Below are positions 12,767 to 57,486 of a DNA stretch of 64,000 nucleotides, one piece after another. The DNA lies in IMG/VR virus record IMGVR_UViG_3300030118_004474, positions 1 through 64,000 of that record; one strand, written 5' to 3'. Position numbers and translations under genes: made by a program. Positions within the stretch are counted from its first letter, which is position 1. Each line of letters begins with the position of its first letter. The notes under the pieces are model-generated. The model was not told the origin of the DNA. It did not search any database and saw only the letters and a program-made list of their open reading frames with translations. Source of the stretch: a virus.

Positions 12767-15217
12767 TTACCACCAATCCTCCAATGATGTTTGATTAACG
12801 TCTTTTTTATACAAGGTCAAAGGCCACCCCATACTCTCAAAGACAAGTGCAGATTTTTTAATAATTTCTGCCTCAGCAATAAACTCCCAATCGGGTTTGT
12901 ATGTTTCGCTAAGTTTCATTTGATTCACACTTCTAAACGCTAAGTATTCTGCTGTTTTAGATTCACCACTCCATATGTAGCATTTTTCGTCCAAATCACT
13001 ATTATTCATTTTGTAGTAGTAGTAAGAATCCCCTTTTACGATTTTACTACCCAAGTTTTGTTGATTATAATACAAGATACCTGCTGTCCCTCCTGCCACC
13101 ATCTTATAATCAGATAGTGGTTTTATTAAACGGCTTCGTTTTATTAAACGGCTAATGTCCACCTCACCTTGTACTATATCTTTATACCAACCATTACAGT
13201 AGGCTACTATTTCGTTCTTACATTCAAACAAGGAGACTTTCTTTAAAAGGTTTTCCTGAAACTCCTTCGCAACTGGTGTCTCATTACTCTTCTTCATCTC
13301 AAAACCCATCACGAAGAATTTGTCCTCGGATAAAAAGTCCCCGTCCTTCCACGAAAGCCAACCACAATATCGGTTCTTTTTCTTGGAGAGGAAAAACTTG
13401 GAGGCAAACTTCTCAAATTCTAACTCAACAGGCTCACGGAAAATCTTCTTTGAAATGTAATCGTTCAATTTCTCACGCAATTCTAGTGCATCATCAACAT
13501 CTTTAACCTTAATGAAAACAGAATCGGTGTGTCCGTAAATAACTTCGTAGCCCAGTCCTTGAGCATAGAAAGCCGTCATCCTCATAGCCCTACGAGCAGA
13601 AGCCGTGATTGATTTAGCCATGTCCATGTCTCCCCACCCGTAGCCGTCTTTTGCTAGAATACCGTAGAATGCGTTGACAACCCGCTTAGTAGCCATCTGT
13701 GCTGAATCCCACTTTTGATACTCTTCTTCCGTGGTTGCTTGAGAACGCAATTTCTTGTAAGAATCCCGCATCTCCATTAACTCCTTGACCGCTTGAGGCA
13801 ACACACCTTCACCCTCGTTGCTGAAATGGATGTTAGGTTTGCCGTCATAGGGCTTCAGATTCTTGGGAGTTTCCCACCAAACAGGATAACCGCTAGTGGT
13901 CTTAGTCTCCCACGAAATATTCATTGAAGCCATCATGGATGGATATAGGGATTTGAAGTCAAAAATAGCCACGTTTTCATGTTGTCCGTAAGTCTTTTCC
14001 TCATCAGGGTCCATCACGAAAGCCGCTTCAAACTTTTCCTTTGAACCTTTTAGTCCAGTAGGGGGAATCCAGCCAGCCTTCTTCATAAAATACACACCAG
14101 CCATTTGTGAATTGTGATATGTGTTTTCAAACGGACAACCGATTAGCCGTTGTAGGGCCAACTGATTCTCGCTAACATTTAATTTTTCATCAATATCCAC
14201 ACACAATTTTACATCTATTCTTGCGTATTCTAAATAAGTATTTGTGTCCTCAAGCCAAGCCCTTTCGTAAAACTCGTTGTCTTGAAACTTTGAAGAAACA
14301 ACCTTACCATCATTTTCTAGAACTAATTTAGAGCAATCATCTAGTTTTAAAGAGGGCAACGTTCCCATCTGCGAATCAGTCCAAAGGCGTTCAAATCTGT
14401 CCATTAAGCAAAACGTTAATCTTCCTTTAATTGGTTGTCCACTATTATAATAGTTTTCTACTTTTAAATCCCATCCTACTGGTTCTCCATTTCTACGACG
14501 ACGACTAACATTTTTAATTTCTCCATAAGGAGACATCAGCGTTGGATTAATATTCAATTCACACATACGAGAAATAACTTTCGGTATGTCAAAACCAAGC
14601 AAATACCAACCGATAATCATGTCGGGGTCTTGCTCTTGCATTAGACGAATAAAGGCGTAAAGCATATCAGTTTCATTGTCGTAAATTTCAAGCCATTCTT
14701 GGTGAAGAATACTGTTATCCGGCTCACCTGTTGGGAACCAAGTCATTACAGTAGGCTTTTGTGTGTAGTTATCGTAAATACTTAACACCGTAATTTTCCC
14801 ATGATGTTCTCCGCCTACTTGAGTTTCAATATCAAAATACCACTTACGAAGATTATATTCGGGAACGTCATAATCAGTATCAATGCACCACAAACGGGAA
14901 GCATCTACATCTCCCTGAAATGTTCTTTCTGTGCGATGTATTTCCTGTATAATATTATATCTGTCGTATGGGTTTTCATAATAATATTTTAAAAGAGGAA
15001 CTCCGTCTAGGTTTCTTAATTTAGTCTTCTCAATTTTAAAATTGATTTTTCTACCTTTTACTACAATACTACTACCAATCTTTGTATTGATAGATAAATA
15101 AAAATAAGGTTGACATTCAAAGGTTTCTTCTTTTCTCTCATCATCACTATTACGATAGCGAAGTTTAATCTTGTGCTGATTGTTCTCTTGAATCGTATTT
15201 ATCATCATTTTTATCAC
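12767..15217 (-). CDS. polB: Family B DNA polymerase
   Basis: Exo I FDIET, DFKSLYPS, KRVVNAFYG, YGHTDS, KKNRY; C-terminal PIP-box QTSLEDWW. Confidence 0.97.
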   Translation of the reverse strand: MIKMMINTIQENNQHKIKLRYRNSDDERKEETFECQPYFYLSINTKIGSSIVVKGRKINFKIEKTKLRNLDGVPLLKYYYENPYDRYNIIQEIHRTERTFQGDVDASRLWCIDTDYDVPEYNLRKWYFDIETQVGGEHHGKITVLSIYDNYTQKPTVMTWFPTGEPDNSILHQEWLEIYDNETDMLYAFIRLMQEQDPDMIIGWYLLGFDIPKVISRMCELNINPTLMSPYGEIKNVSRRRRNGEPVGWDLKVENYYNSGQPIKGRLTFCLMDRFERLWTDSQMGTLPSLKLDDCSKLVLENDGKVVSSKFQDNEFYERAWLEDTNTYLEYARIDVKLCVDIDEKLNVSENQLALQRLIGCPFENTYHNSQMAGVYFMKKAGWIPPTGLKGSKEKFEAAFVMDPDEEKTYGQHENVAIFDFKSLYPSMMASMNISWETKTTSGYPVWWETPKNLKPYDGKPNIHFSNEGEGVLPQAVKELMEMRDSYKKLRSQATTEEEYQKWDSAQMATKRVVNAFYGILAKDGYGWGDMDMAKSITASARRAMRMTAFYAQGLGYEVIYGHTDSVFIKVKDVDDALELREKLNDYISKKIFREPVELEFEKFASKFFLSKKKNRYCGWLSWKDGDFLSEDKFFVMGFEMKKSNETPVAKEFQENLLKKVSLFECKNEIVAYCNGWYKDIVQGEVDISRLIKRSRLIKPLSDYKMVAGGTAGILYYNQQNLGSKIVKGDSYYYYKMNNSDLDEKCYIWSGESKTAEYLAFRSVNQMKLSETYKPDWEFIAEAEIIKKSALVFESMGWPLTLYKKDVNQTSLEDWW

Positions 15218-32364: not shown

Positions 32365-32394
32365 ATTTATCACTTCTTTTTATTATTGAGTAGG

Positions 32395-32478
32395 TGCTGG
32401 GGGCAGGATTTGAACCTGCGAACCTTTGAGGACAGGAGTTTAAGCCCTGCGCTTTTAACCATACTCAGCCACCCCAGC
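32395..32478 (-). tRNA. tRNA-Leu(UAA)
   Basis: GCTGGGG/CCCCAGC acceptor stem, CAGGG-CTTAAAC-TCCTG anticodon arm, long variable arm, GGTTCAAATCC T-loop. Confidence 0.92.
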
Positions 32479-32484
32479 GTTTAA

Positions 32485-32556
32485 CGGGCGTAGGAGGAAT
32501 TGAACCCCCATCTCCGGCTTAGAAGGCCGGAATGCTATCCTTTACACCATACGCCC
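32485..32556 (-). tRNA. tRNA-Arg(UCU)
   Basis: GGGCGTA/TACGCCC acceptor stem, CCGGC-CTTCTAA-GCCGG anticodon arm, GGTTCAATTCC T-loop. Confidence 0.93.
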
Positions 32557-34936: not shown

Positions 34937-35421
34937 AGATATTCCTCCAACCATTGAGGGGCGGTCCCTTTTGTGTATTTAGCAAAACGAGCCTTTTCAT
35001 TTATGTAATAATTCCGATATGCTTCTATTGGGTCTTTACATTTATACTCGTCAGGCATACATTGAGGTGGAGGGTAAAACTCCCCACCTTTAACGGGACT
35101 TTCTTTCAATAGTTCTAGTAATTCACTAGAAGCATGGACTTTATTATACCTTCGGCTATACTCGTTTAACATAGCAACCAAAAGGTCGTAGTGCCATAAG
35201 TAGTTCCCTTCTGTTTGCATAGTCCAAACAGTTGAAGGATGACCAACATGCACGGGTTTGTAAATATTCTTTAAAACATTCTTTGACTCTTTAAATGAGG
35301 TTTTTGACCACCAAGCAGTAGACAGCATTTGTGCTGATTCCAAGGGCATTTTTACAATGTGCTTATCACACAGTTGTTTTGCTATTTCTGTTGGGTCTTT
35401 TGATAGATAAAATATATTCAT
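34933..35421 (-). CDS. Pyrimidine-dimer DNA glycosylase (T4 DenV-like)
   Basis: MNIFYL...CDKHIVKMPLESAQML, HPSTVW, PQCMP, AYRNYY. Confidence 0.8.
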   Translation of the reverse strand: MNIFYLSKDPTEIAKQLCDKHIVKMPLESAQMLSTAWWSKTSFKESKNVLKNIYKPVHVGHPSTVWTMQTEGNYLWHYDLLVAMLNEYSRRYNKVHASSELLELLKESPVKGGEFYPPPQCMPDEYKCKDPIEAYRNYYINEKARFAKYTKGTAPQWLEEYL

Positions 35422-35454
35422 TCTTCCACATTCCATTTATTGTTTTTCTATTTT

Positions 35455-35730
35455 ATAGAACATTTCTCACTACATAATGAGAGAGAATCCATATCTCCTA
35501 CATTTTGTCAGCGAGAATGCCCGTTTCTCGTCATTTCTCATTTCTCATGAGTCTCATGGGGGTGTGCATCTACACACACCACCACCACCACCACCAACTT
35601 ACAATAATATATGATAATAATGAGAATATAAGAAATATAATAGATAATTGAAATATCCTAAACATTTTGTCATACTTAGTGTCTCACGAACTTTCTCATG
35701 TGAGAACATACGACAATTTGTAGGATTTAT
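35455..35730. repeat. Origin-like repeat region at the strand switch
   Basis: Many TTCTCA/TGAGAA-type hexamers in both orientations; ACATTTTGTC twice plus an inverted GACAATTTGTAGGA; (CA)n(CCA)n tract; AT-rich core. Confidence 0.55.
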
Positions 35731-35971
35731 ATAAAAACAAAAGAATATAACGCTCAAGAAAACATAAAGTGAATTTTAGATTTGGTGAAATGTCAAGAAT
35801 AGGAGATAACTTGGACACCAATGTTTTCAAGAGCATTACTGGTCATGGGTCTGAGTATATAAGGTGGTTCAGACCCCTTATAAAGGACCGGAACGGTTAT
35901 ATACCCCTATATAGGTCTATATAGATTACATATATTTTTATACCAACTAAAGATTCTTTCCCTCTTTTCCT

Positions 35972-35998
35972 ACCATATGGTAGCAACGTAATTTGTAT
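35972..35998. repeat. Palindrome 1 (ACCATATGGT) plus left arm of module 1 (CGTAATTTGTAT)
   Basis: 35972-35981 and 35987-35998. Confidence 0.9.
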
Positions 35999-36003
35999 TT
36001 GCA

Positions 36004-36016
36004 CCCCATATACTAA
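36004..36016 (+). promoter_or_regulatory. TATA-like promoter element of module 1
   Basis: CCCCATATACTAA; similar elements at 37048 (CCTTATATACCCA) and 37621 (CCCCATATTCTAA), each just inside a module's left arm. Confidence 0.45.
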
Positions 36017-36055
36017 CCCTCCGTCATGTATTGCCTAAAAAGGCAGGAGATAACA

Positions 36056-36670
36056 ATGGCAAAAGAACAAGAAATGATAACTGACGAAAAATGGACTGCG
36101 TGGACAAACGCAATCATTGAATGGGGAGAGAACTTTGATTCTCACCTTCAAACATTGGTTGATGCCCCCGAAGGTCAATTTGAAATTGATGATGAAGAAA
36201 TGGAAGCGAACTGGGCAACCATTCAAAACAAAATCAACCGTGGAAACAAGCGACCGGCCCGAAGGAACGACTTGAAAAAGCAAATTCAAGAAGAAGGACG
36301 AAAAATGCCCAACTGGCCCCATTCTCGTGGAGCCGGTTCATCTTTGACCCCAGAACAACAAGCGGCAAGAGACAAGTTCGCCGCAATTGCTCGTTTGGCG
36401 GCAATTGCTGAATATCAAGTCTTTGTTGAAAACGACGCAACCCACCTTTTGGTTCAGCGAGCATCCAAAGCGAATCAAACAGAAGGTGAAGAGTTCCCTT
36501 CGCAGGAAGCGTTTGTTGAATACCGGGAGAAAGCGGCCAAGGCAACTGCAACCGGCTACCTTTCAGGAAAAACGGCATTTTGGGGTGCAAAGGATGAAGA
36601 AGACAATGTTCTTCCCTTTGACTTCCAACAGAAGATTGTACGACCCATCCCTGTTGATAAGGAGGAGTAA
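36056..36670 (+). CDS. Hypothetical 204-aa protein (module 1)
   Basis: AGGAG RBS; GC-richer codon usage than the flanks. Confidence 0.75.
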   Translation: MAKEQEMITDEKWTAWTNAIIEWGENFDSHLQTLVDAPEGQFEIDDEEMEANWATIQNKINRGNKRPARRNDLKKQIQEEGRKMPNWPHSRGAGSSLTPEQQAARDKFAAIARLAAIAEYQVFVENDATHLLVQRASKANQTEGEEFPSQEAFVEYREKAAKATATGYLSGKTAFWGAKDEEDNVLPFDFQQKIVRPIPVDKEE

Positions 36671-36672
36671 GG

Positions 36673-36708
36673 TTGTTCAACCGCTTCTTTGATGATGACG
36701 ACGATTGA
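36673..36708 (+). CDS. Micro-ORF MFNRFFDDDDD
   Basis: GGAGGAG RBS, TTG start, in-frame Asp run, TGA. Confidence 0.35.
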   Translation: MFNRFFDDDDD

Positions 36709-36880
36709 TTTCGTTTGAGTCAAACAACCAATGATAGAAAGTGCGAAGAGAACTCACTTTCTTGAGGTAATGACATTCTCACCAATGCAGGTTTTGTGTC
36801 CTGCCCTTTTCCGGTTTCTCGTGCGGGGTGCTTCGCCGGAAAAAAATCAAAAAACACAACTTTTTTTTGTGGTTGGCCGC

Positions 36881-36912
36881 ATACAAATTACGCTCTCCTC
36901 CAACCATATGGT
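36881..36912. repeat. Right arm of module 1 (ATACAAATTACG) plus palindrome 2
   Basis: 36881-36892 is the exact reverse complement of 35987-35998; ACCATATGGT at 36903-36912. Confidence 0.9.
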
Positions 36913-36949
36913 CATGCGAAAGCATATTATGACCGCAGGAGGTGAACGG

Positions 36950-36973
36950 GTGTTTGACGACGACGATGAGTGA
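36950..36973 (+). CDS. Micro-ORF MFDDDDE
   Basis: Strong SD AGGAGGTGA (36937-36945), GTG start; lies in the 86-bp spacer between palindromes 2 and 3. Confidence 0.35.
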   Translation: MFDDDDE

Positions 36974-36998
36974 TGTCTTGTTTTAACACTTTTCCGTT

Positions 36999-37031
36999 AC
37001 CATATGGTTGGGAGCAAGGCGAAAATTTGTG
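36999..37031. repeat. Palindrome 3 plus left arm of module 2 (GCGAAAATTTGTG)
   Basis: 36999-37008 and 37019-37031. Confidence 0.9.
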
Positions 37032-37100
37032 TAGTATAACGCTAACACCTTATATACCCAAGAAATACCAATGTAGTGCTGAAAAGCAGGAGGAAACAAC

Positions 37101-37463
37101 ATGAAACAAAAAACAGACCCCCACCAGCGACTCCTCGCAAGGGCTAACGCCTTTGTGATGGATGACACAAAAGAAGAAGAAGAGGTTGCTGATTGCAAAG
37201 TTCTCATTGGCCGCTTTACGGAAGCCATTGAGGCTCAAAATGATGCTCGGATTGCCCGATACTCCGAGCGACTTGCCGTTCACATCAAAGGAACAAAGGT
37301 CAGCATTTCCTTGTCCGAGGATGAAGTGGCCGAAGCCACAAGAACAGCCGAGGCCTTCAAAACCTTCTTTGACACATACCCAACTCTTTCCGTCCCAAGG
37401 GAACACACCCTTGAAAAATTCACGGCGGCTTTCATCTCAGCGATGAAGGAGGCCAAAAAGTGA
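37101..37463 (+). CDS. Hypothetical 120-aa protein (module 2)
   Basis: AGGAGG RBS; GC-richer codons. Confidence 0.75.
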   Translation: MKQKTDPHQRLLARANAFVMDDTKEEEEVADCKVLIGRFTEAIEAQNDARIARYSERLAVHIKGTKVSISLSEDEVAEATRTAEAFKTFFDTYPTLSVPREHTLEKFTAAFISAMKEAKK

Positions 37464-37486
37464 TTCGTCGGGATGACGACGAGTGA
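37460..37486 (+). CDS. Micro-ORF MIRRDDDE
   Basis: AAGGAGG RBS; GTG overlaps the upstream TGA. Confidence 0.3.
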   Translation: MIRRDDDE

Positions 37487-37560
37487 GGTTTAGGCCTCGC
37501 CCCCCGGACTCTCTCCTAAATCGGGCATGAGGGGAGGGTCCACTTGGGGTTTATTCGCTT

Positions 37561-37619
37561 CACAAATTTTCGCTCTGCATTAAAATGCTACCATATGGTA
37601 GGGGATAATTTGTAGGCAC
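37561..37619. repeat. Right arm of module 2, palindrome 4, left arm of module 3
   Basis: CACAAATTTTCGC 37561-37573 (reverse complement of 37019-37031); ACCATATGGT 37590-37599; ATAATTTGTAGGCAC 37605-37619. Confidence 0.9.
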
Positions 37620-37649
37620 ACCCCATATTCTAAACGTGATTCATGGAGT

Positions 37650-37826
37650 ATGTTTTGGAGCAAGAAGCCGACATTTACCATTAAAGTGAAACAAAACCGA
37701 TACGAAAGATTCATCATTGATGAGTTGCGAATTACTAATATCAGCGAGGAAAATCTTGCTGATACTTTGATGCGAGCAATTGCAGAGATTGAACAAAAAC
37801 TTAGCGTATTGAACGGAGAGGATTAA
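37650..37826 (+). CDS. Hypothetical 58-aa protein (module 3)
   Basis: Manual translation MFWSKKPTF...LNGED. Confidence 0.55.
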   Translation: MFWSKKPTFTIKVKQNRYERFIIDELRITNISEENLADTLMRAIAEIEQKLSVLNGED

Positions 37827-37952
37827 ATGAGCAGAGATGAATTGATAGAACTTTTGCAGTTCGTCATTAAAGCGTTAGAGGCGATGGAAGATGACTGTAA
37901 AATTGACCAATACCAACAAACACTTGATACCTTGCGAGGTGAGGATGAATGA
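37827..37952 (+). CDS. Hypothetical 41-aa protein (module 3)
   Basis: MSRDELIELL...RGEDE; GAGG RBS. Confidence 0.5.
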   Translation: MSRDELIELLQFVIKALEAMEDDCKIDQYQQTLDTLRGEDE

Positions 37953-38179
37953 AAGCATACCAATGCCCTGACTGTGGAAAAACCGACTACATGAAATCCG
38001 TGGAAGAAGAGGTTCACTACTACGACATTCACCCCAATGAAGAGGGCGAAAAAACCTACACGGGACATTCTAATATTGTTGATGGTCGCATTGATTTTAT
38101 TTTGTGCCTGAACTGTGGTAGAGATTTTCAAGAATCCCAGTTGAAAGAAATGGTCGTTGATGCGGAGGAAGATGAATGA
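37949..38179 (+). CDS. Zn-ribbon protein (module 3)
   Basis: CPDCG...CLNCG. Confidence 0.65.
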   Translation: MKAYQCPDCGKTDYMKSVEEEVHYYDIHPNEEGEKTYTGHSNIVDGRIDFILCLNCGRDFQESQLKEMVVDAEEDE

Positions 38180-38361
38180 TTCAAAAGTTGTGTTTCGTTT
38201 GCAAAATACCCATATCAAATCAACTATCAAATACTCATACCTGTAAAAAATTAACCTGTCAGGCTGAGTATCAATACCAACACTATGAGTGGAGACAGGA
38301 ACAAATGGATTACCTATACGGTATTTCATATAAACCAGAAGAAGAGGAGGAAGACGAATGA
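38176..38361 (+). CDS. Small Cys-containing acidic protein (module 3)
   Basis: CFVC...C...C; ATGA coupling. Confidence 0.55.
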   Translation: MIQKLCFVCKIPISNQLSNTHTCKKLTCQAEYQYQHYEWRQEQMDYLYGISYKPEEEEEDE

Positions 38362-38576
38362 TTTCCCACGACGCATTTATGGGCATGACCGATGAACATT
38401 GGTCAATGCAAGACCAACTAATATTTCTTGCTGAAAATGAAGATTGGTGCGACCTATTTTTCAGGGTGATTAAAAAAGAATGGGAAGCCATTGCCGATAC
38501 GATGGAAATTTCTTGTCTTCAAGCATTCGCTAAAAGCAGAGGTTTGAAACTGACATTGTTTGAAGACCCGGAGTGA
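38358..38576 (+). CDS. Hypothetical protein (module 3)
   Basis: GGAGG RBS; ATGA coupling. Confidence 0.55.
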   Translation: MISHDAFMGMTDEHWSMQDQLIFLAENEDWCDLFFRVIKKEWEAIADTMEISCLQAFAKSRGLKLTLFEDPE

Positions 38577-38719
38577 TTTGATGAAATATAATCTATACTA
38601 CGGAATAAGACTTCATTCTTCACATGAAACATTGAGGGATGCAAAAAATGAAAAAAAGCGATTAAACTCACCAAAGGCGGTTGTGATTTTTTATCATGGT
38701 CGTCGTGTGGGATGATTGG

Positions 38720-39050
38720 GCGGAGGGTGGCAAAAAGCGTGATTGCTTGACAATCTGGCTCTGTGCAAAAGGGCTGGTTATTCTCACGTTGTTCAAGGAG
38801 CAAAAGAAGATAACTAATAGTAAATGGTAGGTAGAAACCATATCTGAGTATTGCACGAAAAGATAGAACTATCTACCCCTACATCGTTAGTAATGCGGGG
38901 GCGCAATTTGCGTATCGTTAATTACCGTAAGGGTGAGATGCCCCCATTAGTTTCCTTAATGGAATGTGGTTTGTTAGGATTAAAAAAGGAAAAAGTTTGC
39001 TAATCCGGCTAACATGGGGGTTTTCGGTGCCTCCTTTCCTTTCCACATTC
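38720..39050 (+). ncRNA. Candidate ~330-nt multi-helix non-coding RNA
   Basis: No credible ORF; many helices with G-U pairs on the + strand (see findings). Confidence 0.5.
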
Positions 39051-39079
39051 TATTATTTGATTATTTTTTTTATTTTGGG

Positions 39080-39107
39080 GTGCCTACAAATTATACAACC
39101 ATATGGT
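39080..39107. repeat. Right arm of module 3 (GTGCCTACAAATTAT) plus palindrome 5
   Basis: 39080-39094 is the exact reverse complement of 37605-37619; ACCATATGGT at 39098-39107. Confidence 0.9.
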
Positions 39108-39310
39108 AACTTTGGTAGCCAAAAAAAACATAAAAATAAATGAATGTTTTCAGAATTTTCCAAAAATATTTAAATAACATAACCCACGAGTCATATTTAG
39201 AGCCTCCCAACATGAAATATTCTACCAAACCAATACAAAACTGAAAAAAATAAACAAAAACGCCCCCTAAAATGAAAAAAACCGGCCAAAACGCCCCCGG
39301 AAGTGAAAAA

Positions 39311-40228
39311 ATGTGGTTCAATGTGCTAAAAAACACAGAAAGGAGAGCCGCCTACCGTCAATTTCGCAATACTTTTTTCCCAAAGGGCGAGTTTTACTAC
39401 GATATGTCCACAGTTGAAAAAATTAAAGATACTGAAAAAAGATATAATAAGGGGACGGCCCTTACCGTTATAGTAATAAAGCCAGCAAATGGTCTTTTTA
39501 GGCTTTATTTTAATCCTCTTTATAACAGAATAGTATTGGAAAGCGATGTCGCCAGTATTGCGCCCTATGTTGGATTCATTGCTGGTATGTTTGAGGAAGA
39601 ATATCCGGAATCTTACCAATCCATCAGAGAGGAATTGACTTCTGTTTATAATAATCTGGCACACCCCGATGAAATCGCAGGGAGGGCGGAGCCTGTTCTC
39701 CCTATACCGAAAAGGGTCTTCAGAAAAATGAGGATTATTTTTCAAGAAATTTCAGACACCTTGCAAGAAAGAATAACTACAACTGTTTCAGCCGATTCTA
39801 ATAGAGCAGGTGGCTTATATCCGAGGTACGCACCACGTCCCTTTGACCCACGCCGACTAGTTGACACAATACGTATAATGTTTGATTATAGGCCCCCCAT
39901 GAAAAAAATAATACAAAAATTTGATATGCCTTCAAACGAAAACGATATTCCCAAGGCTATATTACATTCAGTTTATACCCCTTTTATTTCAAATGCTAAA
40001 AGGGAATATCCGGATTTTGTTTGGGGACATATTGTTAATTTTTATGTTGCTTTCGGAGATTTACTGTCAAAACAAATAAAAGGCGATACAAGACTAGAAA
40101 TATTTGATTCAATTATACAATATGACGAAGAGGAAGTAGCGGCATATATATTTCAAATTTGGCAAAGAGAAGACCGTTATAGAAATTTATTACTAGAAAA
40201 TTTACCATATGAAGAATATAATGATTAA
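39311..40228 (+). CDS. Hypothetical protein with leader MWFNVLK
   Basis: Leader nearly identical to that of the gene at 6232. Confidence 0.7.
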   Translation: MWFNVLKNTERRAAYRQFRNTFFPKGEFYYDMSTVEKIKDTEKRYNKGTALTVIVIKPANGLFRLYFNPLYNRIVLESDVASIAPYVGFIAGMFEEEYPESYQSIREELTSVYNNLAHPDEIAGRAEPVLPIPKRVFRKMRIIFQEISDTLQERITTTVSADSNRAGGLYPRYAPRPFDPRRLVDTIRIMFDYRPPMKKIIQKFDMPSNENDIPKAILHSVYTPFISNAKREYPDFVWGHIVNFYVAFGDLLSKQIKGDTRLEIFDSIIQYDEEEVAAYIFQIWQREDRYRNLLLENLPYEEYND

Positions 40229-51734: not shown

Positions 51735-53068
51735 AGAAGGATTTGGGGTATGGAGCACCGGGAACTTATCTTCCTATCATAACTGATGAGGAAGGAAAAC
51801 CAGCCAATACTCCGGATGTATATATTGATGATAAAATCTATTCTGAAAAAGAAATGGTTGCTTTATTTAGAAAAGTTAACCCATATCGTAAAACTAGAGA
51901 AGAGATGGATTTTTTTCCTCCCCTAACGAGACAAAATGCTGATGGTTATTTTATTGCCTTTGACCGTGTAAATACCTTGGGTGGTTCACCCCTACCTGTT
52001 GGACGTGCTGGGTGGAAATATCTTGATGAGCATAAATTATTCCTCACTACGGGAATAAAAACAATTGACATGTATAGGGGTCTAGGTGTGGCTAAAATGC
52101 TGTGGGCAAAAAGGGATAGTGCTATATTTGGTACTAATCCAGCAATCGGTATGGCTAGTAATTTTTCTTCGGGCTGGCTCAATTATATTAAATCACAAGG
52201 TTGGACCGTTGACCCTCCGGTGGAGTCCTTACCGGCAAGTATTCAAGACGAGGTTATAAATACACTACAAGGGGACAAACCTCGCCGGTTAATTAGTAAG
52301 AATATTGATATGGCTATGAAAAAGGCTTGGGAAATTTTAAAGGTTGATACTCGTCCCGACATTCGTAATGAAGCGCAATACAATGCGGCTTCCTTAGATG
52401 AAAGAAGGCGTTGGCATAACCGACAAAGAGAGGCATATAATACAAGGTTAAAAGCCCTTAGAACTCAACACACAGTAGATTTAACCGATACAGAAAACCC
52501 AGTTTATCAAGAAATGAAATATTATCAAGATATGAGAAACTTTCACGGTAGGCAACAAAGAAGAATAGCAAGGTGTCTTGGGTTAGGAAAAACAGAATGT
52601 AATGACTATTATTCCCTAGAGTTAGAAGGAGAAAATAGACGAACGCAAAAATATAAAACTACTCCTACGGGTAAATTAGACCCTTATGTTGAAATATCAT
52701 TGGAAGCCTATAATAATCTAACAGATAAGCAAAAAATAAATTATCATATGGGTATGATGAGGCAGGGAATAGATAAAACATTTCACAATAGAATGTTTCA
52801 TAGGATTCAACGCAAGTATAAACCACCAACATTCCCTTCTCCTAAATACGGCGGCGAATCTAGTGAGGGTTTAGAATACACAAAGGAAGAATACGATAAT
52901 ATGGATGATAAAAACAAAAGGGAATATCATGGTCGTATGGCATCAAGAGCAAAAAGAGATAATAATGACGAACTACGCCGATTTCATGATAGAATGCGTT
53001 ATAGACTTAGAATGAATATACCCCTCCCTAATTATTATTCACCCGAAGACGAACAGGAGGAAGAATAA
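51731..53068 (+). CDS. GNAT acetyltransferase fused to a His-pair repeat domain
   Basis: Motif A YRGLGVAKML; internal KKAWEILK; three Y...H...FHxR repeats. Confidence 0.65.
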   Translation: MKKDLGYGAPGTYLPIITDEEGKPANTPDVYIDDKIYSEKEMVALFRKVNPYRKTREEMDFFPPLTRQNADGYFIAFDRVNTLGGSPLPVGRAGWKYLDEHKLFLTTGIKTIDMYRGLGVAKMLWAKRDSAIFGTNPAIGMASNFSSGWLNYIKSQGWTVDPPVESLPASIQDEVINTLQGDKPRRLISKNIDMAMKKAWEILKVDTRPDIRNEAQYNAASLDERRRWHNRQREAYNTRLKALRTQHTVDLTDTENPVYQEMKYYQDMRNFHGRQQRRIARCLGLGKTECNDYYSLELEGENRRTQKYKTTPTGKLDPYVEISLEAYNNLTDKQKINYHMGMMRQGIDKTFHNRMFHRIQRKYKPPTFPSPKYGGESSEGLEYTKEEYDNMDDKNKREYHGRMASRAKRDNNDELRRFHDRMRYRLRMNIPLPNYYSPEDEQEEE

Positions 53069-54486
53069 TGGACCTACTCACGGAAATGGACATGAAAGCC
53101 TCTAAGGGCAATTTTGAATATTTCTTCACTAAGGTTCTAGGTTTTGAGATGGCCCCCTTCCACAGGGAATGGCTTGAGCGTGTCCAATCTACACAACGTA
53201 CCGTTACGATTTGTTCACGGGACCACGGCAAATCAGTTTTTTTTCACTCGTGGTGCATCTACCAGTTATGTTTCCAAGAACCCCCATACGAAATTATTTA
53301 CATTTCCTCTAACCAAAAGCAAACAATGGTTCACATGAAAGATATTGATAGAATGTTTTCTACTATTCCCGCCTTGAAGAAGTTCAAACCTAAACAGGGT
53401 TGGGCTGTTGGCCGAATGGAATTGACCAACGGAAACCGTATCGTTGAAAGGTCGGTTGGTTCTCAAATCCGTGGACTCCACCCCGACGAAATTATCATTG
53501 ACGACCCAATGAAGGAGTTCTCTATGACCGCCATTCAGCGAGTCTCGGATTGGTTTTGGGGTGATATGATTCCTACCCTTCACCACACCTCCTCTTTGAG
53601 AATGATTGGAACGCCTTTCACCTACACGGATATATTCGCTGAGTTGGAGGAAAACACCGAGTATGATGTAAAACGTTATCCAGCCATTAACCAAGCAGGA
53701 GAAGCACTTTGGCCTTCCCGTTGGGATATTGACTCGCTAGACCGTCGCCGTAGGGAAATAGGTTCTGCTAAATTTACAAGAGAATATCTTTGTATTCCCA
53801 TTTCTTCCAATACAATGTTATTTGGAAAAGAACATGTGGATAAATCAAAAGATAGAACCTCGTCTTTACAATACTATGGAAACAACGAAGCATTCAAATA
53901 CTACATAGGCTACGACCCATCAATGAGCATCAATGGCGACTACACCGTGATGATTGTTTTAGAGGTTGATGAAGAATTAAATAAAAAAGTTGTTCATATG
54001 GTTCGTGAAAAAAATATGGACTTTCGTTCACATATCACCCGCATTACTGACCTATGCCAAAGATTCTCACCAGAAATCGTAATGATTGAAACAAACACCT
54101 TCGCTAAATCTTTCGCTATGGAACTACGAGACATTTCTGACTTCCCCGTTAAGGAGTTCACTATGAGTAGAAAGAAAAAAGAAGAAATTATTCTTAACCT
54201 ACAAATGAACTTTGAAAACAATAAAATTCTTTTACCGTATCAAAAAGACGAGGACAAAAAAGTTTCTAATGTAATCGTTCAAGAATTAGAGGCTTTTGGT
54301 ATTGGTAATAGTGGAAGAATAGAGGGCCTTGGAGCGCATGATGACACCGTTATTGCTTTGGCCTTAGCGAACTATGCAACCAAGACCTTTACAGACACAT
54401 TTATTGAAATTGAGGACGCTGGTATTTTTGCTACTAGTGGTCCAACGCTAAACTTAGGAGGTGGTATTTTTGGAATTAATTATTAG
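53068..54486 (+). CDS. terL: Terminase large subunit
   Basis: SRDHGKS Walker A, IIIDDP Walker B, IGTP, IGYDP and HDDTVIALALA nuclease motifs. Confidence 0.95.
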   Translation: MDLLTEMDMKASKGNFEYFFTKVLGFEMAPFHREWLERVQSTQRTVTICSRDHGKSVFFHSWCIYQLCFQEPPYEIIYISSNQKQTMVHMKDIDRMFSTIPALKKFKPKQGWAVGRMELTNGNRIVERSVGSQIRGLHPDEIIIDDPMKEFSMTAIQRVSDWFWGDMIPTLHHTSSLRMIGTPFTYTDIFAELEENTEYDVKRYPAINQAGEALWPSRWDIDSLDRRRREIGSAKFTREYLCIPISSNTMLFGKEHVDKSKDRTSSLQYYGNNEAFKYYIGYDPSMSINGDYTVMIVLEVDEELNKKVVHMVREKNMDFRSHITRITDLCQRFSPEIVMIETNTFAKSFAMELRDISDFPVKEFTMSRKKKEEIILNLQMNFENNKILLPYQKDEDKKVSNVIVQELEAFGIGNSGRIEGLGAHDDTVIALALANYATKTFTDTFIEIEDAGIFATSGPTLNLGGGIFGINY

Positions 54487-55855
54487 TAAAGATGAAATAA
54501 ACACAGAAGAATTGAGAAGAAAATTAGAGGAACTTGAAGAGGCTAAAAGAATCAAGGACGAAAAAGAAGAAAGTCTCCGTGCCGTAGCCAATAAAGACCC
54601 AAATGAAGTTATGATGTCATGGCTCCAATATCAATGTCATGACGAAATGCAAGTAATAAAAGATATTTCTAATAACTTAAAAATCAATTTTACAGACGCC
54701 AAGCAATATATTTCTAAAATGCCCGAAGAACTTATGATTGAGGAAAAAACAATACCGGATGTTGTAAAAGAATTGAGATACATGCGTAGGACTCTCAAGG
54801 GTAAAACAAGAGAAAAAATGGCCTCCACCATTAATCATTTAATTAAGGCATATTCTGAACACTTAGATAATTCATTAGATTCTATCTATTGGTTGAGGCC
54901 GTTTAAAAAATCTGTTAGGATGCTTACTCCTGATATTAAAATGATGAAAAAATTTCACCACATCAAGGACGGAGAAACTAGACAGGTAATTATTGATAAT
55001 CTAGTTAAAATGTGGGAGGCTAATTTACAAAAATCATCCCTTGAATATGGGGAAGAATATAATACAGCCATAATAAAATTTAAATCTTCTAAAAAGAATA
55101 TTAAGAGTATTTTGAAAGAAATCTCTCATCAGTCAATTAGAAAACCAAGACAAGAGGTATTGGAAGATATGTTAGTCAAGACAATATGTGATAATCCCGG
55201 TATTACTAGCAATACGATTCATTCTCTTTTACCGTCCTCCTACCATCGCTCCACCACTCCCCAAACGATTTCTAAAATGCTAAAAAGAGTTCAAGCAATA
55301 AATGTCGGGGGAGAGTATTATATTCTAAGTGATGCTATCAGAAAAGACTTGTATTCTTACGTTGCAGGGTTTATTGATTCTGATGGATATATTACTATGG
55401 ATTCTAAATATGCACCGAGGGTTGGTATGATTGCTACTGGGGACCGAGGAAAGGCTTTTTTCAAGGAGATGGAAAATCAATTGAAAATTGGACGCTTACA
55501 CTTGGACCAAAAGGTAGGGGAAAATAATAGAAGCCAACACAGATTAAATTTTTATAGTCAGGGTGATATATCTAAACTACTGGATAAGACAATACCTCAC
55601 CTAAGAATGAAAAAGGAACAGGGCAAACTGATTCAAGAAGCCATCATGATTAAACAAAATTTTTCTAAAGAAGATTGGGCCAAGCCCCGCTTAGAAGAAA
55701 TTTTTAAACTTATCAAGTGGGAGAACTGGAAGGATGCCGCTAATAAAGTAGAATTACAAAAGTATAATATACAAGAAGAGGATATTATAAAATATAGAGA
55801 GAACTCCCGGTGGGCCTACATGAACGCCGTGGACACGATTTCAAAGGAGGAATGA
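54461..55855 (+). CDS. Protein with a C-terminal LAGLIDADG endonuclease domain
   Basis: YVAGFIDSDGYI; preceded by a wHTH-like segment and a long helical N-terminus; true start possibly TTG 54470. Confidence 0.8.
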   Translation: MVFLELIISKDEINTEELRRKLEELEEAKRIKDEKEESLRAVANKDPNEVMMSWLQYQCHDEMQVIKDISNNLKINFTDAKQYISKMPEELMIEEKTIPDVVKELRYMRRTLKGKTREKMASTINHLIKAYSEHLDNSLDSIYWLRPFKKSVRMLTPDIKMMKKFHHIKDGETRQVIIDNLVKMWEANLQKSSLEYGEEYNTAIIKFKSSKKNIKSILKEISHQSIRKPRQEVLEDMLVKTICDNPGITSNTIHSLLPSSYHRSTTPQTISKMLKRVQAINVGGEYYILSDAIRKDLYSYVAGFIDSDGYITMDSKYAPRVGMIATGDRGKAFFKEMENQLKIGRLHLDQKVGENNRSQHRLNFYSQGDISKLLDKTIPHLRMKKEQGKLIQEAIMIKQNFSKEDWAKPRLEEIFKLIKWENWKDAANKVELQKYNIQEEDIIKYRENSRWAYMNAVDTISKEE

Positions 55856-57486
55856 ATATGGGTCTAAGGGATAGTCTAAGAAACCTCATTAGGAGAAGAA
55901 CACCAACTCCTGTAAATGATGAAGTATATAACATGGGTATTCAAGAACGAAGACTACCACAACATTATGCTGGCAAATATCTATATTCTATGGCTCAAAA
56001 TTCAACCGTGGTCCGGACTTGTCTAGTTCAACTTAAAACTGAAATTTTTCGCAGGGGTTATGAATGGGTAAAGGCCTTTGATTTAAAGTGTAGTGATTGT
56101 GGATATGAACATCACAAAGAGGTGGACGCTTGTTCTAGTTGTGGTTCTACAAATCTAAGAAGACCCGACCTTCAACAGAAACTATACGCTTTTGACTTTT
56201 TTGAAGGATATGTAAATTCATCACATCAATTGTTTATTGATGTTCTAAAGGAATTGGAAACTGATATGAATATCATTGATGATGCTTACCTAATATTAGT
56301 AAAAGACTACTACTTAGATAAAAACGGCGAAATAATAATGTCCAAAATAAACGAGATTTATAGGGGCGACCCAACAACGATTTACATAGAGGTTGATGAA
56401 GATGGTGATAGAGGTCATTCTCGTTATACATGTATAACACATAGAGATTTTGTTAGTGAAGATAAATATGATAAATGTGCAGTTTGTGGTTCCTCCCTAC
56501 ATCCGATAGAATTTGTAAATAAATCTAGAGGTGAAGACCAAAATTATATTATGGGAGAAGTTGTTCATTTTAGTAAATATTCACCTTCAAGATTATATGG
56601 ACATCCGCCAGTTCTAACACTATTTAATCACATTTTTACCCTAACCGCTATGGAAAGTTATATCAGCACATTATATACCAAGGCTAGAACCCCAAGAGGT
56701 ATTCTCGCTGTCCAAACAAACAATATGGAGTCGTTGGTAAAGTATTGGAAGGGAGTAAAGGAGAAGTTAGAAAGGGACCCCCACTACACACCCATTATGG
56801 GAATTGAAACAGAAGGAGGTTCAAGAGGTTCTGTTGAATGGGTTCCATTCACTAACACAATTAAAGAAATGGACTATATCAACGTAAAGGATGATTTGAG
56901 AACAAGAGTTTCGTCTTTTTATGGTGTTAGTAATATTTTTACCGGAGACACTACTACTGGCGGCGGTCTTAATAACGAAGGTATGCAAATTTTGGTCACA
57001 AATAGAGCAGTTGAAAAGGCACAGAACGTTTATAATAAATACATGTTTCCTTTCTTAATGAAACAATTTGGCATTACCGATTGGAAAGTTCAACTTCTAA
57101 GAAGTGAAGAGGAAGATGAAATCGCTAATATCCGTAGGCGGGAGATGGAACTACAACTAGCAATACAAATGAAAAATCTTGGATTTGAAGTTGATATGAA
57201 TGAGGATGGAGACTTTGTTTTCAAAAAATACCCCGCTAAAGAACTTATTGATGTTGATGTTGAATCCGATGAAAAACCACTAGAAACAGACCCCTATGCG
57301 GGAACAAACATTGACCGTTCGCAATTAGGACAACTACAAGAACAGGCTTTGATGAGTGGCAATACGAAGGCGCAAGTAGCGGGAGAAACTAGTATGGAAA
57401 AAGGCCCACCGAAAAGATTTAGTGGTCTACCAAAGGAGGCAGGAAATAATAACGTGGATAGTAGGACCGAAAGGAGGATTCCTTGA
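55852..57486 (+). CDS. Portal protein
   Basis: Downstream of terL; EVVHF..YSPSRLYGHPP, PRGIL, RVSSFYGVS motifs; Zn-ribbon inserts. Confidence 0.85.
   Translation: MNMGLRDSLRNLIRRRTPTPVNDEVYNMGIQERRLPQHYAGKYLYSMAQNSTVVRTCLVQLKTEIFRRGYEWVKAFDLKCSDCGYEHHKEVDACSSCGSTNLRRPDLQQKLYAFDFFEGYVNSSHQLFIDVLKELETDMNIIDDAYLILVKDYYLDKNGEIIMSKINEIYRGDPTTIYIEVDEDGDRGHSRYTCITHRDFVSEDKYDKCAVCGSSLHPIEFVNKSRGEDQNYIMGEVVHFSKYSPSRLYGHPPVLTLFNHIFTLTAMESYISTLYTKARTPRGILAVQTNNMESLVKYWKGVKEKLERDPHYTPIMGIETEGGSRGSVEWVPFTNTIKEMDYINVKDDLRTRVSSFYGVSNIFTGDTTTGGGLNNEGMQILVTNRAVEKAQNVYNKYMFPFLMKQFGITDWKVQLLRSEEEDEIANIRRREMELQLAIQMKNLGFEVDMNEDGDFVFKKYPAKELIDVDVESDEKPLETDPYAGTNIDRSQLGQLQEQALMSGNTKAQVAGETSMEKGPPKRFSGLPKEAGNNNVDSRTERRIP

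Follow-up and report, generated by a model that had tools for sequence, protein, structure and literature searches.

The window, a stretch of 64,000 nucleotides from an 88,181-bp IMG/VR virus record (IMGVR_UViG_3300030118_004474), belongs to a magrovirus-like tailed virus that infects marine archaea. At the junction of its leftward replication block with its rightward late block lie five exact copies of the invariant 10-letter palindrome ACCATATGGT (P1 to P5), which bound three gene modules (M1 to M3) and an 86-bp micro-ORF cassette (Table 1).

Table 1. Features of the palindrome array and a candidate enzyme gene, as predicted from the DNA sequence
Feature	Position	Strand	Basis
P1, palindrome joint, left border of array	35972–35981	none	sequence count
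M1 left arm CGTAATTTGTAT, contains family box TAATTTGTA	35987–35998	+	sequence reading, arm-word comparison
M1 TATA-like box CCCATATACTAA	36005–36016	+	sequence reading
M1 5' hairpin, 3' of TATA-like box	36031–36046	+	folding
Gene 1, 204-aa orphan	36056–36670	+	ORF list; protein-cluster, Pfam and PHROGs searches
SD-led acid-tailed micro-ORF (..FFDDDDD), 3' of gene 1	36674–36709	+	read from sequence
T8 run, likely archaeal terminator of M1	36861–36868	+	sequence; putative termination role
M1 right arm, box inverted	36881–36892	-	sequence reading, arm-word comparison
P2, palindrome joint	36903–36912	none	sequence count
Micro-ORF cassette, family F0, 86 bp	36913–36998	+	C(GNNA)G hairpin, GGAGGTG, ORF
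P3, palindrome joint	36999–37008	none	sequence count
M2 left arm GCGAAAATTTGTG	37019–37031	+	sequence reading, arm-word comparison
M2 TATA-like box CCTTATATACCC	37048–37059	+	sequence reading
M2 5' hairpin	37077–37088	+	folding
Gene 2, 120-aa orphan	37101–37463	+	ORF list, protein-cluster search
Acid-tailed micro-ORF overlapping end of gene 2	37460–37486	+	read from sequence
M2 right arm	37561–37573	-	sequence reading, arm-word comparison
P4, palindrome joint	37590–37599	none	sequence count
M3 left arm ATAATTTGTAGGCAC	37605–37619	+	sequence reading, arm-word comparison
M3 TATA-like box CCCCATATTC	37621–37630	+	ends 19 nt before ATG
M3 gene block	37650–38715	+	ORF list, domain search
M3 first gene, 58-aa MFW.. 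protein	37650–37826	+	kept in all AATTTGT-box arrays
M3 small ORFs	37827–37952, 37949–38179 (zinc ribbon), 38176–38361, 38358–38576, 38560–38715	+	
M3 3' part, few ORFs	38716–39062	+	sequence reading
T8-A-T4 run, likely M3 terminator	39064–39076	+	sequence reading
M3 right arm	39080–39094	-	sequence reading, arm-word comparison
P5, palindrome joint, right border of array	39098–39107	none	sequence count; flank beyond syntenic with relatives' array flanks
LAGLIDADG-like protein, 464 aa, one motif (VAGFIDSDGYI)	54461–55855	+	candidate enzyme only

Genes 1 and 2 had no match in Pfam or PHROGs, and a search of 5.8 billion proteins placed them with four and two protein clusters, respectively, none with a Pfam assignment. 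The 58-aa protein that opens M3 is not recognisable as a DNA binder (AF2 pLDDT 85; best PDB match Pur-alpha, E 0.2). The ORF of the F0 cassette (36950–36973) encodes MFDDDDE, and relatives carry the same kind of acid-tailed micro-ORF as that behind gene 1 after an F4-family gene. An RNA-library contig begins at 36033, the start of the gene 1 hairpin, which is a weak hint only; RNA-library coverage by a contig also spans 38667–38935, and a G-rich motif at 38709–38731 in the 3' region of M3 does not fold significantly (z -1.2). Compared with the two closest relatives (L129 and L130), the most conserved stretch is 36901–37050, around the F0 cassette (92–98% identity, against about 50–70% for genes 1 and 2); by this measure the non-coding joints are the most conserved DNA. 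An earlier, sequence-only reading of this DNA had described the five palindromes, the orphan genes, a higher G+C content in M1 and M2 (45% at 36–38 kb, 35–37% to either side) and three exactly matching pairs of inverted arms, all of which we confirm. The small hairpins that it placed just before the SD in M1 and M2 are present (-6.5 kcal/mol for gene 1, -3.8 for gene 2, and about -7 for the micro-ORF), but are only marginally more stable than shuffled sequences (z -1.6, -1.7 and -0.5, respectively).

Dinucleotide shuffles predict 0.08 copies of ACCATATGGT in the window, and none of 100 shuffles reached the five observed. Allowing one mismatch adds only two sites, both distant (10601 and 46959). 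The entire 88,181-bp record contains no exact copy outside the array, and the first reading had noticed none in the window; the same word read backwards, used as a control, is absent from the record. In nine arrays we counted 74 exact and eight one-mismatch copies, every mismatch being at the outermost base. The invariant part of each joint is the core (A)CCATATGG(T), and the 10-mer is unchanged among viruses whose PolB proteins share only 35–65% identity.

The arms inside the palindromes are copies of a family-wide box, TAATTTGTA in the window's clade and RCTTTGY in remoter relatives, located 3–17 nt from the palindrome on the gene-module side. At 5' ends a TATA-like CCTTATAT comes after the box, and at 3' ends a T-run precedes the inverted box; oligo-T is a known termination signal in archaea. 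RCTTTGY occupies the same place in the remoter arrays, before CCTTATA at 5' ends and after a hairpin and T-run at 3' ends. Among gene modules of at least 300 nt from 11 sources, some of them closely related, 24 of 36 have the box at both ends and 32 have it at one end at least. In four of five distinct homologous promoters of the conserved 57–59-aa gene, the TATA-like box ends 19–21 nt before the ATG (19 nt in M3 of the window, 20–21 nt in three of the four others and 29 nt in G002), and this distance has been kept while the spacers diverged. The palindrome also bounds mini-cassettes of 80–180 bp that have no recognisable promoter or box; therefore, "promoter element" does not describe its whole function.

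Both flanks of the array are syntenic with the array flanks in relatives. Each of the records G001–G011 contains a single cluster of 5–13 palindromes (control, 0), and the searched relatives with complete or near-complete genomes all show one, with 6–13 copies within 3–5 kb. Clusters of the 8-mer core also exist in G012, G013, G015, G016, G020 and G021, with 11 core copies in 5 kb of G013 despite a PolB only 35% identical. The comparison of relatives proposed in the sequence-only reading comes out in favour of cassettes: which units are present, how they are ordered and which way they point all vary, and the breakpoints lie at the palindrome. Compared with G004 and G006, G001 has exactly one additional palindrome and 125-bp unit; a 136-bp unit is at another joint and inverted between G004 and G006; and unit families F0, F6 and F7 occupy differing joints, in differing orientations, in four arrays with the same flanks. 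The F6 units of G004 and L135 are identical at 19 of 20 and 20 of 20 positions just inside the palindromes and at 6 of 20 and 5 of 20 just outside, which places the exchange breaks within the 10-bp palindrome in these alignments. The window's own clade (the window, L129 and L130) has an identical layout, with no shuffling of these modules. Inversions or deletions at the palindrome, which the earlier reading had suggested seeking in reads, were not found: assembled contigs of four runs (depth 2–8) contained no palindrome-to-palindrome joint, and the one structural variant in these runs skips 37941–38167, not at a palindrome.

We suggest, with a probability of roughly 55%, that small accessory genes at the border of the replication and late blocks form a hyperplastic island, that the five palindromes are its joints, and that composite promoter–terminator units are shuffled at the palindrome. 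Each joint would be a composite boundary element made of the core and the nearby box, and each module an autonomous promoter–gene(s)–terminator unit. The inverted arms would then exist because two inward-facing copies of one element bracket each module, and not through base pairing. At the 5' end the box leads into a TATA-like box ending about 19–21 nt before a leaderless ATG or, in the alternative layout, lying about 20–25 nt before a short 5' hairpin and SD; at the 3' end, the inverted box comes after an oligo-T run. The palindrome and box may be recognised by a dimeric, sequence-specific protein of the virus or its host that sets or insulates transcription of the island. Since all joints share one symmetric 10-mer, breakage–rejoining or template switching at the palindrome would repeatedly have inserted, deleted, moved and inverted whole units over the evolution of the group.

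Shuffling might instead be programmed rather than a by-product, the palindrome being the target of a viral enzyme, for example a homodimer of the 54461–55855 protein, whose breaks at the self-complementary ATAT centre would be rejoined either way by viral ligases or repair. Single-motif LAGLIDADG enzymes are homodimers that cut (pseudo)palindromes, leaving 4-nt 3' overhangs. Exchange points inside the palindrome at both sides of moved units, the occurrence of units in both orientations and the invariance of the 10-mer despite PolB divergence fit such an enzyme, and the approximately 10 bp shared at joints, short for ordinary homologous recombination, favour one. The sequence-only reading had recognised no recombinase in the window; this is correct for tyrosine and serine recombinases and Y1 transposases (Phage_integrase, Resolvase and Y1_Tnp gave no match in the whole record), but a LAGLIDADG-like nuclease gene is present. 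Its 464-aa product was found in 9 of 11 and 3 of 10 array-related records searched, including all five rated complete (those with no match are all fragments rated 23–71% complete), and the single motif is invariant in eight of nine aligned homologues. It is, however, a core gene, so that co-occurrence does not discriminate, and nothing connects the protein with the palindrome. It scores 12.1 bits against Pfam LAGLIDADG_3, below the cut-off of 22.5, its best PDB sequence match has an E of 0.15, and AF2 confidence is 35–55 in the LAGLIDADG-like domain. Its gene is 15 kb distant from the array and has the genes for the terminase large subunit and portal on either side, a setting in which homing or packaging would be an equally likely role. 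Moreover, self-cutting of the viral genome at 5–13 sites needs explaining, and palindrome joints were not seen at the population level in the four runs. Magroviruses are reported to encode LAGLIDADG nucleases and ATP-dependent ligases (Philosof et al. 2017). We consider programmed cutting rather unlikely, and this protein as the array-acting enzyme a speculative candidate.

A role in DNA metabolism is more doubtful still. On this view the palindromes would serve as iterons or ORB-like boxes for an initiator, as partition or packaging sites, or as stops in stepwise ejection: each genome has a single cluster, placed where cumulative GC skew reaches its minimum and the gene blocks diverge, a stretch that reads as AT-rich lies directly left of P1, and the strict conservation of a dyad implies that its binder is dimeric. 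However, the skew switch coincides with the coding-strand switch and is not independent evidence, and the copies extend over 3–5 kb among genes, each at a set place with respect to TATA-like boxes, SD-led ORFs and T-runs. The array varies freely in copy number and unit content, as origins usually do not, and the terminase large subunit gene is 14 kb away. For the proposed analogy with the T5 first-step-transfer region we found no evidence, the array being approximately 14–18 kb from the end in the single relative that has direct terminal repeats.

The arms had further been read as covarying, and hence as pairing physically. Exact words common to the two arms reach 12, 13 and 15 nt in M1, M2 and M3 (7–9 nt across modules), the M2 arms extending to 21 nt at 86% and those of M3 to 18 nt at 94%; own partners agree at 8, 9 and 11 of 16 flank positions, against 1–7 for cross pairs. 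The corresponding words are 8, 12 and 8 nt in L129, whose M2 arms thus also match well, and 11, 7 and 10 nt in L130, the changes being uncompensated. Over nine sources, a module's two arms resemble each other no more than they resemble arms of other modules (permutation p 0.24, rising to 0.80 when the window and to 0.99 when its clade is left out), and module-specific matching is peculiar to the window's clade. The box, kept at both module ends, is conserved as sequence and not as complementarity. The palindrome–arm spacers are unequal within pairs (5 and 10, 10 and 17, and 5 and 3 nt), none of the six arms folds locally better than shuffles, and, being upstream of the TATA-like box or downstream of the T-run, the arms fall outside the predicted transcripts. 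Because the matching is confined to one clade, decays with no compensation and gives p 0.99 elsewhere, selected pairing of arms and palindromes as ssDNA or RNA, looping out each module as in attC or a processing stem, is highly improbable. The extra arm identity in the window may reflect local homogenisation, by gene conversion or common origin, that decays in sister genomes.

Bacterial REP and BIME elements are extragenic palindromes with RAYT (Y1) transposases. They too are short palindromes punctuating intergenic regions; in contrast, the magrovirus palindrome is exact, stands at unit joints in a single cluster rather than dispersed, and is accompanied by no Y1 transposase in G000, G001 or G004. 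In integrons (attC/IntI), arrays of small accessory-gene units likewise gain, lose and reorder members at a repeated site of imperfect symmetry, whereas here unit orientation is not fixed and the repeated sequence is a perfect palindrome of 10 bp with no significant local folding, attC being folded and 57–141 nt long. Of the integron- or shufflon-like cassette system suggested at first, the palindrome joints and the insertion, movement and inversion of units in relatives stand; membership of either class does not, because no recombinase was found, tyrosine recombinases included, units carry their own predicted promoters and terminators, and entire modules lie between the repeats. The closest known systems are the HGTV-1 motif and the PeSL cassettes of T4-type phages. 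HGTV-1, a haloarchaeal virus, is likewise tailed; most of its left-arm ORFs are preceded by copies of a conserved intergenic motif, a TATA-like box together with an inverted repeat, which its authors likened to PeSLs for regulation and shuffling (Sencilo et al. 2013, via PMC3950731). That virus belongs to another group and host, and the description there gives no evidence of an invariant palindrome joint, motifs at both unit ends, moves or inversions. PeSLs (promoter-early stem-loops) are composite promoter/terminator motifs that separate small ORFans and are concentrated upstream of them in hyperplastic regions between conserved blocks, where indels and replacements between related viruses break at the motif (Arbiol et al. 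2010, PMC2839356; Comeau et al. 2014, PMC4122927). They differ in having longer, sigma-70 promoters and a variable G/C stem-loop, compared with the TATA-type promoter, invariant palindrome and 7–9-bp box of this archaeal virus; magroviruses have one cluster per genome, their units also occur inverted, exchange points fall within 10 bp, and many units are gene-less or have only a micro-ORF. As a counterpoint to our preferred explanation, the sequence shared at joints is approximately 10 bp, unlike the longer PeSL motifs. Related magroviruses have gained, lost, moved and flipped units exactly at the palindrome, much as T4-type phages have done at repeated promoter/terminator motifs.

The 10-mer palindrome ACCATATGGT occurs five times in the window, as had been reported from the sequence, with its copies interspersed among genes across 3 kb. 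Archaeal replication origins have ORB boxes inverted about an AT-rich unwinding element, beside an orc1/cdc6 initiator gene. Shuffled sequence is expected to contain 0.08 copies, and none of 100 shuffles reached five. A search allowing one mismatch added just two sites in the window, both distant, and the remainder of the 88-kb record contains no further copy. Relatives whose arrays carry the 10-mer as well came to light in a pattern scan of viral contigs: there are 12, 11, 12, 11, 5 and 9 copies in six related records (G001-G006, in that order) and 13, 7, 7, 6 and 6 in five others (G007-G011), the backwards-read control giving zero. In each record searchable whole, all copies lie within a single 3-5 kb cluster. 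Scanning for two palindromes 70-100 nt apart yielded 37 stretches on 36 viral contigs, and 20 of the 33 new viral loci have at least four copies. The 8-mer core is clustered in two further records, G012 (9 copies) and G013 (11 copies in 5 kb), although the family-B DNA polymerase (PolB) of the latter is only 35% identical to that of the window. Nine arrays together contain 74 exact palindromes versus eight with one mismatch, always at the outermost base. The window's array is syntenic, both of its flanks matching array flanks in relatives. By these comparisons, the palindrome is a family feature and not peculiar to the window.

The two-palindrome pattern was also recognized in 38 stretches of bacterial genome contigs (L171-L208), 17 of which have at least three copies, mostly at regular spacing as in tandem repeats. 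The MFW gene (a small gene of module 3, the third of the window's palindrome-bounded modules) is in none of them, and the bacterial stretches were taken to have no connection with the arrays of the viruses. To this set, two bacterial metagenome-assembled genomes supply two contigs each. No Poseidoniales record matched in the same scan of genomes. Among the literature matches listed for the 10-mer, the titles were unrelated, and the occurrences were taken as primer sequence.

The parent record of the window (IMG/VR, 88,181 bp) is rated 88% complete and has no end repeats. In addition to the genes in the table below, the window encodes a thermosome-type chaperonin, ribonucleotide reductase and a DenV-like glycosylase, and this gene set fits the magroviruses as described in the cited passages of Philosof et al. 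(2017). The virus is archaeal and has the PolB, the chaperonin and, in the array, TATA-like boxes. Leftward genes occupy about 7-35.5 kb, and rightward genes begin at 36 kb; the minimum of the cumulative GC skew falls at 35-36 kb, and the palindrome array lies exactly where the gene blocks diverge. A first-step-transfer or injection-stop region like that of T5 would keep a fixed place close to whichever genome end enters first; in G010, a relative with direct terminal repeats, the array is located at 77.9-82.0 kb in a record of 95.6 kb. For the first five proteins of the late block, neither PHROGs nor Pfam suggested a function. A pair of adjacent tRNA genes lies on the minus strand of the window. 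In the remoter relative G007, the PolB match (G007:C1:60517-63370; L248 and L249) is in three pieces, one of them with an in-frame TAA, which suggests that the polymerase gene is split or interrupted. In the surface ocean, magroviruses rank among the most abundant viruses. To our knowledge, their gene regulation and genome plasticity have not been described, and a full-text find in three magrovirus papers returned none of the words palindrome, promoter and inverted repeat.

Positions of the array elements and of selected genes in the window
Feature	Position	Strand	Remark
Family-B DNA polymerase (PolB)	12767-15217	minus	
tRNA pair	32393-32556	minus	Leu (TAA) and Arg (TCT)
Palindrome ACCATATGGT, five copies	35972, 36903, 36999, 37590, 39098		joints of modules 1-3
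Acid-tailed micro-ORF ..FFDDDDD	36674-36709		SD-led, after gene 1
86-bp unit	36913-36998		micro-ORF family F0
Acid-tailed micro-ORF MFDDDDE	36950-36973		SD-led, fills 86-bp unit
Acid-tailed micro-ORF ..RRDDDE	37460-37486		SD-led, after gene 2
MFW gene	37650-37826		58 aa, in module 3
G-rich motif GGGTGG-N3-GAGGGTGGG	38709-38731		
Terminase large subunit	53068-54486		
464-aa protein	54461-55855		between terminase and portal
Portal protein	55810-57486		

Every palindrome flank was oriented outward and then compared across arrays. The AATTTGT core of the inverted arms just inside the palindromes corresponds to a conserved box at a distance of 3-17 nt from the palindrome; its sequence is TAATTTGTA in this clade, and remoter arrays have RCTTTGY. 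Where a gene module begins, a TATA-like box of the CCTTATAT type comes 5-8 nt after the conserved box; where it ends, the same box stands inverted behind an oligo-T run, which in remoter arrays is a hairpin and T-run. Of 36 modules of at least 300 nt (from 11 sources, some closely related), 24 have the box at both ends. Thus, inverted arms are the rule, and each module lies between two copies, facing inward, of a single boundary element. For the MFW gene (57-59 aa in the various arrays), the distance from the end of the TATA-like box to the ATG is 19-21 nt in four of five distinct homologous promoters and 29 nt in G002; the spacing is kept though the spacer sequences have diverged, and it is characteristic of leaderless archaeal promoters. 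The G+C content is higher in modules 1 and 2 (45%) than in their flanks (about 36%), in agreement with the sequence-only reading. The small hairpins that it placed upstream of the SD are present, and they fold barely better than shuffles. A search of Rfam with 35000-40000 gave only one chance match (E 0.4).

Arrays were cut at the palindromes and the pieces were clustered into families of inter-palindrome units (F-numbers). Four arrays with the same flanks have differing units between them, as listed below.

Order of inter-palindrome units in four related arrays
Array	Units
G004	F3, F7<, F11, F4, F5, F0, F0, F12, F6<, u
G006	F3, F11, F4, F5, F7>, F12, F6<, F14
L135	F3, F6<, F11, u, u, F4, F5, F0, F12, F14
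G001	F3, F15, F6>, F0, F0, F16, F4, F7>, F5, F17, F0

In comparison with G004 and G006, G001 has an extra segment of exactly one palindrome plus 125 bp, and alignment between relatives places a 136-bp unit at a different joint, inverted. Identity in unit F6 is 19/20 and 20/20 just inside the two palindromes and drops to 6/20 and 5/20 just outside them, which locates the exchange points within the palindrome. The order of the larger gene modules is kept across arrays. Module 3 of the window is the homologue of F5, and the clade of the window has modules 1 and 2 where other arrays hold different modules. The prediction that related contigs would reveal a cassette array with breakpoints at the palindrome is therefore borne out, units having been inserted, moved and inverted. 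The reading with the best support is a boundary element similar to the promoter-early stem-loop (PeSL) cassettes of T4-type phages: a composite of promoter and terminator that would double as a modular exchange point.

The genes carried by the array were described from the sequence as orphans, and they remain so: gene 1 belongs with four protein clusters and gene 2 with two, neither of them with any family. The only gene common to all arrays with the AATTTGT box is the MFW gene. Its product is predicted by AF2 (pLDDT 85) to form a beta-hairpin and one long helix, a fold that is not RHH, so that an RHH regulator was rejected; Foldseek found no PDB structure at E <= 0.001, the best match being Pur-alpha (E 0.2). 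The arrays of relatives also include acidic micro-ORFs (MFNDEDE, MFFDDDE, MSIFFDDDE and others), in one to three copies. Nowhere in the region is the DNA better conserved than in the joints and the 86-bp unit (92-98% identity to the closest relatives, L129 and L130, versus 50-70% for genes 1 and 2), and conservation of this unit thus extends beyond the peptide. A conserved RNA structure of the micro-ORF cassette was rejected: apart from the trivial helix between the palindromes, RNAalifold on 10 cassettes recovered no more than a tetraloop stem of 2 bp and a single covarying pair. Identity to L129 and L130 is 42-76% in the ORF-poor 3' part of module 3; a structured RNA at 38716-39062 was likewise rejected, its folding (z -1.2) being not above shuffles. 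Units of 125-180 bp that hold no gene (in G001, G002 and G004) also have the G-rich motif, at 20-50 nt from a palindrome, and its form in G002 has four GGG tracts and is G-quadruplex-like.

Assembled contigs of four runs, at a depth of 2-8 and not as raw reads, contained no rearranged joints at palindromes, a comparison of low power. Two short contigs come from an RNA (metatranscriptome) library: one has its start at 36033, together with the 5' hairpin predicted for gene 1, and the other covers 38667-38935 in the ORF-poor part of module 3; these weak hints of expression could also be DNA carry-over. A strain about 95% identical, from another marine metagenome, is without 37941-38167 (227 bp), a deletion that removes a 76-aa zinc-ribbon gene and is not at a palindrome.

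Profile searches agree with the initial impression that no recombinase is recognizable. Phage_integrase (PF00589) had no match in the window's record (G000) or in G001-G004 and matched 14 of 14 control genomes; Resolvase (PF00239) had none in G000, and Y1_Tnp none in G000, G001 and G004. The Rad51 profile (PF08423) had no match either, so that the RadA-like ATPase reported for magroviruses in the cited passages of Philosof et al. (2017) was not recovered. The 464-aa protein encoded between terminase and portal has a wHTH-like middle and a single LAGLIDADG motif, VAGFIDSDGYI, with the conserved acidic residue. LAGLIDADG enzymes with a single motif cleave palindromic sites as homodimers, producing overhangs of 4 nt. 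We consider it unlikely that this protein recognizes and cuts the palindrome, with cut joints religated either way by viral ATP-dependent ligases. The self-complementary ATAT centre of the palindrome would permit any two cut joints to religate in either orientation, and an exchange point of only about 10 bp is short for ordinary homologous recombination, which keeps a dedicated enzyme in play. The protein is 36-88% identical in the related records searched and keeps the motif down to 36-53% identity; GFIDSDG is present in three of four remoter homologues scanned, and an alignment of nine sequences has F, I, D, S, D and G without variation. Against this, profile and structural support for the domain is weak: LAGLIDADG_1 gave no match, LAGLIDADG_3 scored 12.1 bits (cut-off 22.5), the best PDB sequence match was an I-MsoI variant at E 0.15, and the AF2 model, whose topology fits alpha-beta-beta-alpha-beta-beta-alpha, has a pLDDT of 35-55 in that domain. 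Each of the five searched records with a rating of complete has the gene; since it is a core gene, its presence there says little, and its co-occurrence with the array, which is also in every complete record, was discarded as uninformative. Group C of the magroviruses of Philosof et al. is said to be without a LAGLIDADG gene. G014 (71% complete) has neither the array nor the gene, the expected position being off the contig. If such cutting does occur, it would be a natural restriction-and-ligation 'plug-and-play' exchange without a classical recombinase, by which abundant archaeal viruses of the ocean would trade accessory genes that bring their own promoters, as well as micro-ORFs and units of small RNA.

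Pairing of the arms, as single-stranded DNA or RNA, fares worse. The sequence-only reading had noted inverted arms specific to each module and had taken their covariation as a sign of physical pairing. The first observation stands: the arms of modules 1, 2 and 3 match their partners exactly over 12, 13 and 15 nt, versus 7-9 nt between different modules, and own arms share 8, 9 and 11 of 16 core-flanking positions, cross pairs 1-7. The two closest relatives have the same five-palindrome layout and an MFW protein 93% (L129) and 86% (L130) identical to that of the window. Their exact arm words are 8, 12 and 8 nt (L129) and 11, 7 and 10 nt (L130), with one arm alone changed and no compensation in the other. 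When own and cross arms were permuted within genomes, no preference for the own partner was found among nine sources (p 0.24); p was 0.80 without the window and 0.99 without its clade. The permutation left out G003 (near-duplicate of G001), G005 (partial) and two X7 loci (no module boxed at both ends), and module 2 of L130 is missing from it as its right arm has GGG instead of GTG. In local folding, none of six window arms was better than shuffles, and one of six from remoter arrays reached z -2.1. Palindrome-to-arm spacers differ between left and right, and the arms lie outside predicted transcripts. Pairing as a selected feature was rejected on these grounds. The right arm of module 3 resembles the left arm in the window and in L130 and is different in L129 and the outgroups; the extra arm identity of the window is tentatively read as homogenization of two inverted copies. 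The earlier interpretation is thus partly supported, in its cassette array and not in its pairing of arms.

An integron or shufflon proper, to which the array was first likened, is not supported: integrons require the tyrosine recombinase IntI and have promoterless cassettes with a folded attC in one orientation behind Pc, unlike units with their own TATA-like box, both orientations and arms that fold no better than shuffles, and shufflon-type switches require a serine or tyrosine invertase and inversion within one population, no resolvase match (in G000), no integrase match (in G000-G004) and no palindrome joint in the four low-depth contig runs having been found. The known system that the array resembles is that of the PeSLs, which are described, in the cited passages of PMC2839356 and PMC4122927, as repeats combining a promoter with a stem-loop, placed upstream of ORFans where T4-type phage genomes are hyperplastic, at which indels and mini-circles arise; a TATA-plus-inverted-repeat motif of the haloarchaeal virus HGTV-1 has been likened to PeSLs in the cited part of PMC3950731. 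The arrays share with PeSLs their concentration in a hyperplastic region of small ORFans, putative promoter and terminator or stem-loop motifs in intergenic repeats, and indels or replacements between relatives that break at the motif. Where T4-type bacteriophages have a sigma-70 early promoter, this archaeal virus has TATA-like boxes, and the array is an analogue of PeSLs, not a member. It differs further in its strictly invariant, perfect 10-bp palindrome, in forming a single cluster per genome, in having elements at both ends of units that occur in either orientation, and in its exchange point of about 10 bp. A strictly conserved joint that marks every accessory unit offers a ready landmark by which small RNAs and early or accessory genes of these uncultured viruses could be annotated, and a concrete DNA target with which to look for the protein that recognizes it; a dedicated enzyme, if one exists, would represent a new kind of cassette-exchange system. 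With an invariant palindrome at its joints, the array is an analogue, in an archaeal virus, of the PeSL cassettes, and as a counterpart of PeSL-mediated shuffling its exchange point is unusually short, symmetric and orientation-free.
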